DNA from: Escherichia coli
GTDB taxonomy: Bacteria; Pseudomonadota; Gammaproteobacteria; Enterobacterales; Enterobacteriaceae
Assembly (NCBI RefSeq): GCF_024502345.1
Contig: NZ_JALDNN010000001.1
Direction: 5' to 3' (one strand)
Length of the DNA: 64,000 bases
Part shown: positions 427-816 of the stretch, piece by piece
Numbering within the stretch: the first letter of the stretch is position 1
Layout: every line of letters begins with the position of its first letter
Program-made: the position numbers and the translations under genes
The notes under the pieces: model-generated
Databases searched by the model: none
What the model was told of the DNA's origin: nothing
The model's input: the letters and a program-made list of their open reading frames with translations, nothing else

Positions 427-816
427 TCAATCAACTGTGACTTTTTTCCCAAAATCCTCTTCTGCAATCCAGGTTAAAAACGATGTATCGGCGCCACCTA
501 ATTTAACAACGCGATCATATAACATCATAACACCAAAATCATGTTCGATATCCCAGGAGCATGAGAACTCGAAACCAATATAAGGCTGGCCATTATTATG
601 CACCGATAAAATATGTATCGCTAATGGTGATAACAACTTTGAAAAATCCTCTTGAGTTCCAACATCTGGCATATACAACTCTTTTTCTTCCTCGTCATAG
701 TCATATTGCCCTTGTAAATCAGGATATTTTTTCATAAGTTCCGAAAGAATGGATGCCAAAATTTCAGATTGATGAACAATAATATACTGTAACCCAGTCT
801 TATGGCATTCGCTCAT
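427..816 (-). CDS. hypothetical small acidic protein (129 aa), second gene of a two-gene AT-rich insert
   Basis: Uninterrupted ORF in track; co-oriented 39 bp downstream of the 173-aa ORF; many D/E residues; no signal peptide or TM segment; not a K-12 gene at this locus. Confidence 0.5.
   Translation of the reverse strand: MSECHKTGLQYIIVHQSEILASILSELMKKYPDLQGQYDYDEEEKELYMPDVGTQEDFSKLLSPLAIHILSVHNNGQPYIGFEFSCSWDIEHDFGVMMLYDRVVKLGGADTSFLTWIAEEDFGKKVTVD

Follow-up and report, generated by a model that had tools for sequence, protein, structure and literature searches.

The window, a stretch of 64,000 nucleotides from an Escherichia coli contig, is E. coli chromosome (many E. coli genomes match its ybeL-leuS-lptE-holA stretch with 99.8% identity). 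Between the 3' end of rihA and ybeL it contains an AT-rich segment that the preliminary description had called a foreign-looking insert, a reading with which its base composition agrees (Table 1). Of 5426 complete E. coli genomes, 12 have the segment. The content of the ybeL-rihA slot varies between genomes, and in the window the slot holds a DUF6985 gene only. K-12-type strains carry the ybeQ-hscC island at this position, and some E. coli genomes are nearly empty between ybeL and rihA (about 160 bp matched, hits H14-H20). In searches for a mobile-element vehicle, plasmid collections returned two distant megaplasmid matches and phage collections none, and such a vehicle is not evident.

Table 1. 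Features of the rihA-ybeL interval, in window coordinates
Feature	Position	Strand	Remarks
rihA, 3' end	to 364	+	convergent with the DUF6985 gene
AT-rich variable segment	365..1641	.	35.8% GC versus 51.5% for the whole window; about 1.28 kb; DUF6985 gene alone inside
Ancestral gene	427..1377	-	316 codons and stop; TPR-like domain, then DUF6985; single in-frame TAA here
129-aa ORF	427..816	-	residues 188-316 of the ancestral protein; its start is an internal Met
DUF6985 domain	445..912	-	model residues 156-311; Pfam envelope 165-298 is window 484-885; spans the stop
So-called 39-bp spacer	817..855	-	13 in-frame sense codons, LYYSLGGDDPTSC; conserved GGD stretch of DUF6985
Nonsense codon TAA, codon 174 (Q174*)	856..858	-	from CAA (Gln); context GAA TAA TTA
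173-aa ORF	856-1377	-	39 bp upstream of the 129-aa ORF in gene orientation
N-terminal all-helical TPR-like domain	970..1377	-	residues 1-136; most of the 173-aa ORF
Shine-Dalgarno AAGAGGG	1383..1389	-	6 nt before the true start ATG (1375-1377); read from the sequence
ybeL	1642-2124	-	

Several further sequence elements flank the gene. A hairpin (atcaccac...gtggtgat) followed by a T-run lies at 383-411, between the convergent rihA and DUF6985 genes, and is likely their shared terminator. A second terminator-like hairpin (1480-1456, minus strand) lies 3' of ybeL, between ybeL and the DUF6985 gene. Because it separates the two, the DUF6985 gene needs its own promoter within about 1390-1455, where a consensus promoter scan flagged none. 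Farther away, the mechanically listed leuS ORF (907 aa) begins 47 codons 5' of the annotated 860-aa leuS of E. coli and E. fergusonii (window 2218-2358), and is an artefact of ORF listing rather than a feature.

The preliminary description had reported an acidic 129-aa ORF, 39 bp downstream of a 173-aa ORF and in the same orientation, and had read the two as an operon. The ORF is as described (pI 4.49, with 23 D/E versus 9 K/R residues) and the spacing is exact, yet there are not two genes. Translation from 1377 to 427 gives 173 codons, one TAA, the 13 sense codons LYYSLGGDDPTSC and then 129 codons, all in one frame, so that what had been taken for a spacer is coding sequence of DUF6985; it aligns with LNIGGDS and YDIGGDEP of intact homologs. 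The 129-aa ORF is the C-terminal remnant of one 316-codon gene, and no independent gene. The weak ribosome-binding site that had been noted is indeed weak, as the ATG at 816 is preceded by no Shine-Dalgarno sequence (...GATGATCCAACTTCATGT directly upstream of the ATG); this is because that ATG is an internal Met codon, and the translational dependence on an upstream gene that had been read into it falls away.

Domain searches and structural models agree with a single protein. The Pfam family DUF6985 (PF22481) matches the 129-aa ORF with E=5.4e-23, over model positions 46-146 of 148 only. In the reconstructed 316-aa protein, with the TAA read as Gln, the match (E=1.2e-23) covers residues 165-298 and model positions 17-146. 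The 129-aa ORF comprises about two thirds of DUF6985, residues 156-187 being encoded upstream of it. A chance origin of this ORF was considered and is ruled out by the Pfam DUF6985 match (E=5e-23).

An AlphaFold2 model of the reconstructed protein (pLDDT 93.6, pTM 0.79) consists of a helical region (1-136), a linker and a second domain, and the DUF6985 fold is modelled with pLDDT 93.6 and 94.7 in the structural models. The N-terminal half has a helical-repeat fold resembling TPR, and its generic TPR matches include the Hsp70/Hsp90 co-chaperones Cns1, STI-1 and Hop. The 173-aa ORF, which had been proposed as a partner, is this TPR-like half together with the first approximately 20 DUF6985 residues of the same protein. 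The second domain begins with a strand (156-158), a helix (162-174) and a strand (176-179), and since these belong to the same domain as what follows, the stop codon lies inside the DUF6985 fold. A product started at Met188 would, judging from the model, lack two strands and the first helix of DUF6985.

Conserved residues lie on both sides of the stop. In an alignment of 32 sequences, L161 is invariant and W164 near-invariant upstream of it, and Y218, P237, G268, F271, W275, E278, H279 and G282 are invariant after it. In standalone homologs of 169-170 aa, the N-terminal '...LDSWSDFF...LNIGGDS...' aligns with 'LSSWVSFFGDEAE*LYYSLGGDD', across the stop codon. The conserved motif of the protein is C-x-W-[DE]-x-E-H-G, which could equally mark an enzyme or metal site.

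Other collections added little. NCBIfam, PADLOC and PHROGs returned nothing meaningful for the 129-aa fragment, the 173-aa ORF or the intact homologs, and PDB sequence searches, whether by the single protein or by profile (A1 and A2), gave chance matches only. The preliminary description had suggested a profile search against SUKH and Imm families; neither the fragment nor the reconstructed protein had a match to SUKH/SMI1_KNR4 or the Pfam Imm families at E<=10, and NCBIfam gave none.

Intact versions of the gene exist in close relatives. The uninterrupted protein P0008 (316 aa; a cluster of 137 sequences) aligns with 95% identity across 100% of the length, and the contigs that encode it show collinearity with window 337-1711. 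In E. fergusonii, the intact 316-aa protein WP_253168904.1 is encoded between ybeL and rihA (L101, GCA_024129095.1, 6001-6951), with the same synteny as in the window (nadD-holA-lptE-leuS / ybeL / gene / rihA-gltLKJI). An E. fergusonii variant, WP_236713842.1, has 330 aa and an altered C-terminal tail. In another enterobacterium (contig L012), an intact ortholog with 60% identity adjoins ybeL, with DNA identities to the window of 79% for ybeL and 86% for rihA; the slot on this contig holds the ortholog, a 319-aa signal-peptide protein and the ybeT-ybeR-djlB-ybeU-djlC-hscC island.

More distant relatives were collected in a scan of one genome per species, which gave 201 of them. The best approximately 50 are two-domain proteins of about 300-330 aa with 34-51% identity, from Flavobacterium, Chryseobacterium, Pedobacter, Myroides, Capnocytophaga, Tannerella and Campylobacter; intact homologs of 305-329 aa were found in Flavobacterium, Chryseobacterium and Campylobacter. 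DUF6985 is fused in-frame to a half of the 173-aa type in every intact relative. In 12 of 53 two-domain loci, mostly from Campylobacter MAGs, the longest ORF has 136-260 aa, even though tblastn covers about 300 residues (L039, L041, L046, L051-L053, L063-L067 and L070), which reflects either common gene fragmentation or MAG assembly errors. The protein P0002 (134 aa, from a 618-bp ENA contig) has an N-terminus of the Uma2 family and a C-terminus that matches the DUF6985 tail of the window with 100% identity, and is probably an assembly chimera.

The two ORFs of the window are collinear and in frame with the intact gene of these relatives, and codon 174 is a sense codon in all intact homologs in the alignments. 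For lesions within the species, five (L001-L005) of the 12 segment-bearing complete E. coli genomes were aligned. At coordinate 858 (plus-strand numbering), T (TAA) is found in the window and in L001 and L004 (genomes 88-3493 and GF3-3), and C (CAA, Gln) in L002, L003 and L005 (FDAARGOS_943, 873.10 and AHM8C212RI). RefSeq annotates a 194-aa CDS through the junction in the three CAA genomes. These are not intact either: a stop at codon 47 (K47*) is present in all five aligned copies, and the CAA group additionally has two 1-bp deletions and a further stop. All 12 segment-bearing complete genomes have a broken copy, with one of two RefSeq fragment patterns.

The lesions at window positions 856-858 and 1237-1239 are distributed in a reticulate manner among the window and L001-L005. 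The window has Q174* only, the CAA genomes have K47* only (plus frameshifts), and L001 and L004 have both. The allele with both lesions resembles the CAA group in its 5' half and the window in its 3' half. This mosaic points to recombination between pseudogene alleles over simple vertical decay.

A sequencing error at 858 was considered and rejected, as the T also occurs in independent complete genomes and the 173-aa and 129-aa products are found on many contigs. In E. coli draft genomes, 68 contigs have the 173-aa piece and at least 14 have the 129-aa piece.

RefSeq uses the name 'DUF6985 domain-containing protein' for both the E. coli fragment (WP_001672801.1, 129 aa) and the intact E. fergusonii protein (WP_253168904.1, 316 aa). 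The 129-aa ORF carries the DUF6985 label in 7 complete genomes, and older records have DUF2004. In that annotation the pieces are separate CDSs, as opposed to the one pseudogene described here.

Selection acted on the gene as a unit before it was broken, as far as substitution counts can tell. Between the window and the intact allele, dN/dS is 0.21 in both halves, and most of the divergence therefore accumulated under purifying selection on one gene. Within the TAA-bearing lineage, where the window was compared with a genome that shares the TAA, dN/dS is approximately 0.87, a value from only 14 substitutions (3 synonymous, 11 nonsynonymous). In some E. coli drafts, the 129-aa piece has variants at conserved positions (P to L, G to D and R to C). 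Related lineages have further lesions and, from small counts, relaxed constraint. In sequence terms, the selection signals are consistent with recent inactivation, the counts being small.

Translation from the ribosome-binding site at 1383-1389 would end at the TAA and yield a 173-aa TPR-like stub with the first 18-20 or so DUF6985 residues only. The 129-aa piece, with no ribosome-binding site and an incomplete fold, is probably either not made or not functional.

The genomic contexts of DUF6985 genes elsewhere indicate what the intact protein may do. Three standalone DUF6985 genes, 39-54% identical to the window domain, lie 16-35 bp downstream of WHH toxin tips (loci L100, L016 and L098). P0005, in L016, follows a 274-aa WHH/Colicin-DNase ORF by 35 bp, with RHS/YD-shell fragments upstream; P0037, in L100, follows, by 21 bp, a toxin of 1220 aa that contains Transglut_core, PT-HINT and Colicin-DNase/WHH domains; and P0038, in L098, follows, by 16 bp, a protein of at least 706 aa that is cut by the contig end and has a WHH tip at its C-terminus. 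The three tips are 59-72% identical over about 120 aa, and the upstream parts of the proteins are mutually dissimilar. We therefore read the same tip on different carriers, with the same small gene family after it, as the signature of a polymorphic toxin/immunity module, in which one toxin tip occurs on varied carriers and is followed by the same small gene family (PMC3482391). In L016, the region upstream of the WHH-tip ORF (1233-6303) contains a group II intron (RVT_1 and GIIM ORFs) besides the RHS/YD-shell fragments; possibly an intron has inserted into a polymorphic toxin locus here. An additional AHH match among genes upstream of DUF6985 probably does not mark a second toxin: it is best explained as the L016 WHH protein matched by a related HMM, since AHH and WHH motifs are absent from the rest of the upstream-neighbour set.

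Neighbours of other DUF6985 genes are similar in kind. One locus has SMI1_KNR4, DUF1963 and DKNYY neighbours, another has a SUFU neighbour, and genes directly upstream of further DUF6985 genes encode Imm11, Imm51, SUFU and DUF4241. Neighbours are hypervariable: the 746 proteins encoded up to five positions away in 79 loci belong to 395 families, and their genes mostly stand in dense arrays on one strand. Within two positions there are 146 neighbour families, to which Pfam most often assigns SMI1_KNR4 (5), SUKH_6 (3) and SUKH_5 (1); these figures describe a sample of neighbourhoods and not a statistical enrichment. The 31 multidomain DUF6985 proteins include one each with a fusion to SMI1_KNR4, DUF4241, DUF4303 and DUF2262. 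Housekeeping-like neighbours were seen as well, in the Firmicute locus L009 and in Campylobacter loci.

The homologs accordingly display pairing of the same tip with different scaffolds, heterogeneous polyimmunity loci and fusion to immunity domains, and an immunity role is plausible at the level of the family, on the evidence of gene content. The "immunity-like" label of the preliminary description survives to this extent, that relatives are WHH-adjacent or lie in SUKH arrays; the reasoning that led to it and the architecture that it assumed do not. Its suggestion to look for co-occurrence with toxins likewise has a divided outcome, with three standalone homologs after WHH tips and none in the window. 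Direct toxin adjacency is seen for standalone forms only (3 loci) and is absent from the TPR-fused subfamily.

No toxin was found upstream of the gene in the window, and tblastn of the window with the WHH tips gave nothing better than E>0.3. Because the window has no WHH-like coding sequence, the gene in Escherichia is most likely an orphan immunity-type gene whose cognate toxin is not nearby. We consider it probable that the locus is a nonsense-split orphan DUF6985 gene of immunity type that is decaying in E. coli, the reading that best accounts for the observations jointly. More tentatively, and with somewhat less than even confidence, we propose that DUF6985 is a hitherto uncharacterised immunity domain specific for WHH-type HNH nuclease toxins and that its TPR-fused form is a widespread orphan shared horizontally between Bacteroidota, Campylobacter and Escherichia. 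In both readings, DUF6985 would bind and neutralise a WHH-type (HNH/EndoVII) nuclease toxin delivered by competitors, and the TPR-like domain would add an interaction or scaffold surface, like in other TPR-fused immunity proteins. E. fergusonii would keep the gene as pre-emptive protection, while E. coli would be losing it.

A role other than immunity is the alternative that survives best, and we regard it as unlikely. The gene could be an accessory of the ybeL-rihA island with its HscC/DjlB/DjlC Hsp70 system, as a TPR co-chaperone-like adaptor or as a Glu-His enzyme. The L012 ortholog does stand beside genes for a ybeT-like Sel1 protein, DUF1266, DjlB, DjlC and HscC, and the TPR matches to Cns1, STI-1 and Hop and the invariant E278 and H279 could be taken in the same sense. 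However, the TPR matches are generic, the gene is found without the HscC island in E. fergusonii and E. coli, and there are no Hsp70 or J-protein neighbours in 80 loci from other phyla. A literature search on hscC, djlB and DUF1266 gave no link to the DUF6985 gene. An explanation of this type would also leave the WHH-toxin adjacency and the immunity-gene neighbours unexplained.

A functional split of the protein appears improbable. According to this explanation, the 173-aa TPR-like piece and a re-initiated 129-aa truncated DUF6985 would both be made, and perhaps reassemble non-covalently. The window has no lesion in either piece other than the TAA, the 173 + 129 arrangement recurs in many E. 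coli drafts, and the ATG follows the stop at 39 nt, a distance that permits some re-initiation (translational reinitiation is possible in bacteria at such stop-to-ATG distances). Against this, the ATG at 816 is without a Shine-Dalgarno sequence, and the break lies inside a domain, which thereby loses two strands, one helix and its conserved L, W and GGD positions. Moreover, sister E. coli lineages with the same TAA have gained the second stop K47*, and the substitutions in the 129-aa piece at conserved positions and the dN/dS within the TAA lineage, both reported above, also speak against a maintained second product.

Expression of the full-length protein by readthrough of the stop codon or by an ochre suppressor is very improbable. 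The window has this one lesion and the remaining frame is open, as such expression would need, but the context found here, TAA followed by T, terminates translation in E. coli more efficiently than any other, a recoding signal was not seen, and related TAA-bearing lineages gain further lesions. Least credible of all is the toxin/immunity or toxin/antitoxin cassette of two genes proposed in the preliminary description, with the 173-aa ORF as toxin or partner and the 129-aa ORF as its cognate immunity protein: the shared orientation, short gap, small acidic product, low-GC insert and the immunity-type contexts of the family elsewhere would suit it, but the 173-aa ORF is TPR-like with no toxin family match and belongs to a half that intact relatives have fused to DUF6985, the 'gap' codes for conserved domain residues, the window contains no toxin, and PADLOC gave no match.

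The nonsense-split, decaying orphan gene therefore remains our preferred reading, and the 129-aa ORF itself is a pseudogene fragment of an ordinary sort, left by the breakage of a gene whose kind is already known. For annotation, this means that RefSeq's two or three CDSs between rihA and ybeL in these E. coli strains, named 'hypothetical' or 'DUF6985', become one pseudogene. For function, a Pfam domain that had none assigned acquires a testable role, immunity to WHH nuclease toxins, with concrete pairs in L100, L016 and L098. If the WHH-immunity reading is true, the E. coli/E. fergusonii locus is a natural pair of intact and broken alleles for toxin susceptibility. The locus does not represent a new kind of system, as both orphan immunity genes and the decay of such genes are familiar.

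Among known families, the closest in description is Imm37 (formerly SNCF2), a family predicted to provide immunity to Tox-WHH (Zhang et al., 2011, PMC3113570; Zhang et al., 2012, PMC3482391). It is reported to have an alpha+beta fold, a conserved ExG motif, occasional fusion to SUKH and an occurrence in heterogeneous polyimmunity loci, with a broad but sporadic spread, epsilon-proteobacteria, Bacteroidetes and Firmicutes among others (PMC3113570; PMC3482391). All of these published descriptors fit DUF6985, with E278-H279-G280 as ExG, in a comparison by descriptors only. A literature search under the name DUF6985 found no paper, and one on Imm37 found the 2012 paper only. The DUF6985 family may already have been described as Imm37/SNCF2, a correspondence that we offer as a lead and not as a call of membership.

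The SUKH (SMI1/KNR4) and SuFu superfamilies share their genomic niche with DUF6985, there is one DUF6985-SMI1_KNR4 fusion, and the neutralisation of nuclease toxins proposed for these superfamilies is likewise proposed here for DUF6985. With respect to architecture, Imm66-Imm69 fused to TPR repeats are TPR-fused polyimmunity proteins (Zhang et al., 2012, PMC3482391). Like them, the reconstructed protein has a helical-repeat module joined to an alpha+beta domain of immunity type; it differs in the family of its C-terminal domain and in having one immunity-type domain.

Orphan immunity genes are a further parallel, reportedly forming islands in gut Bacteroidales and arrays in the case of T7SS immunity. 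As in such orphans, there is no toxin near the gene described here, its distribution among strains is patchy (12/5426), its GC content is foreign and its alleles are mosaic. Unlike the orphan immunity arrays, the E. coli gene is a single gene in a conserved chromosomal slot, and it is inactivated in the species.
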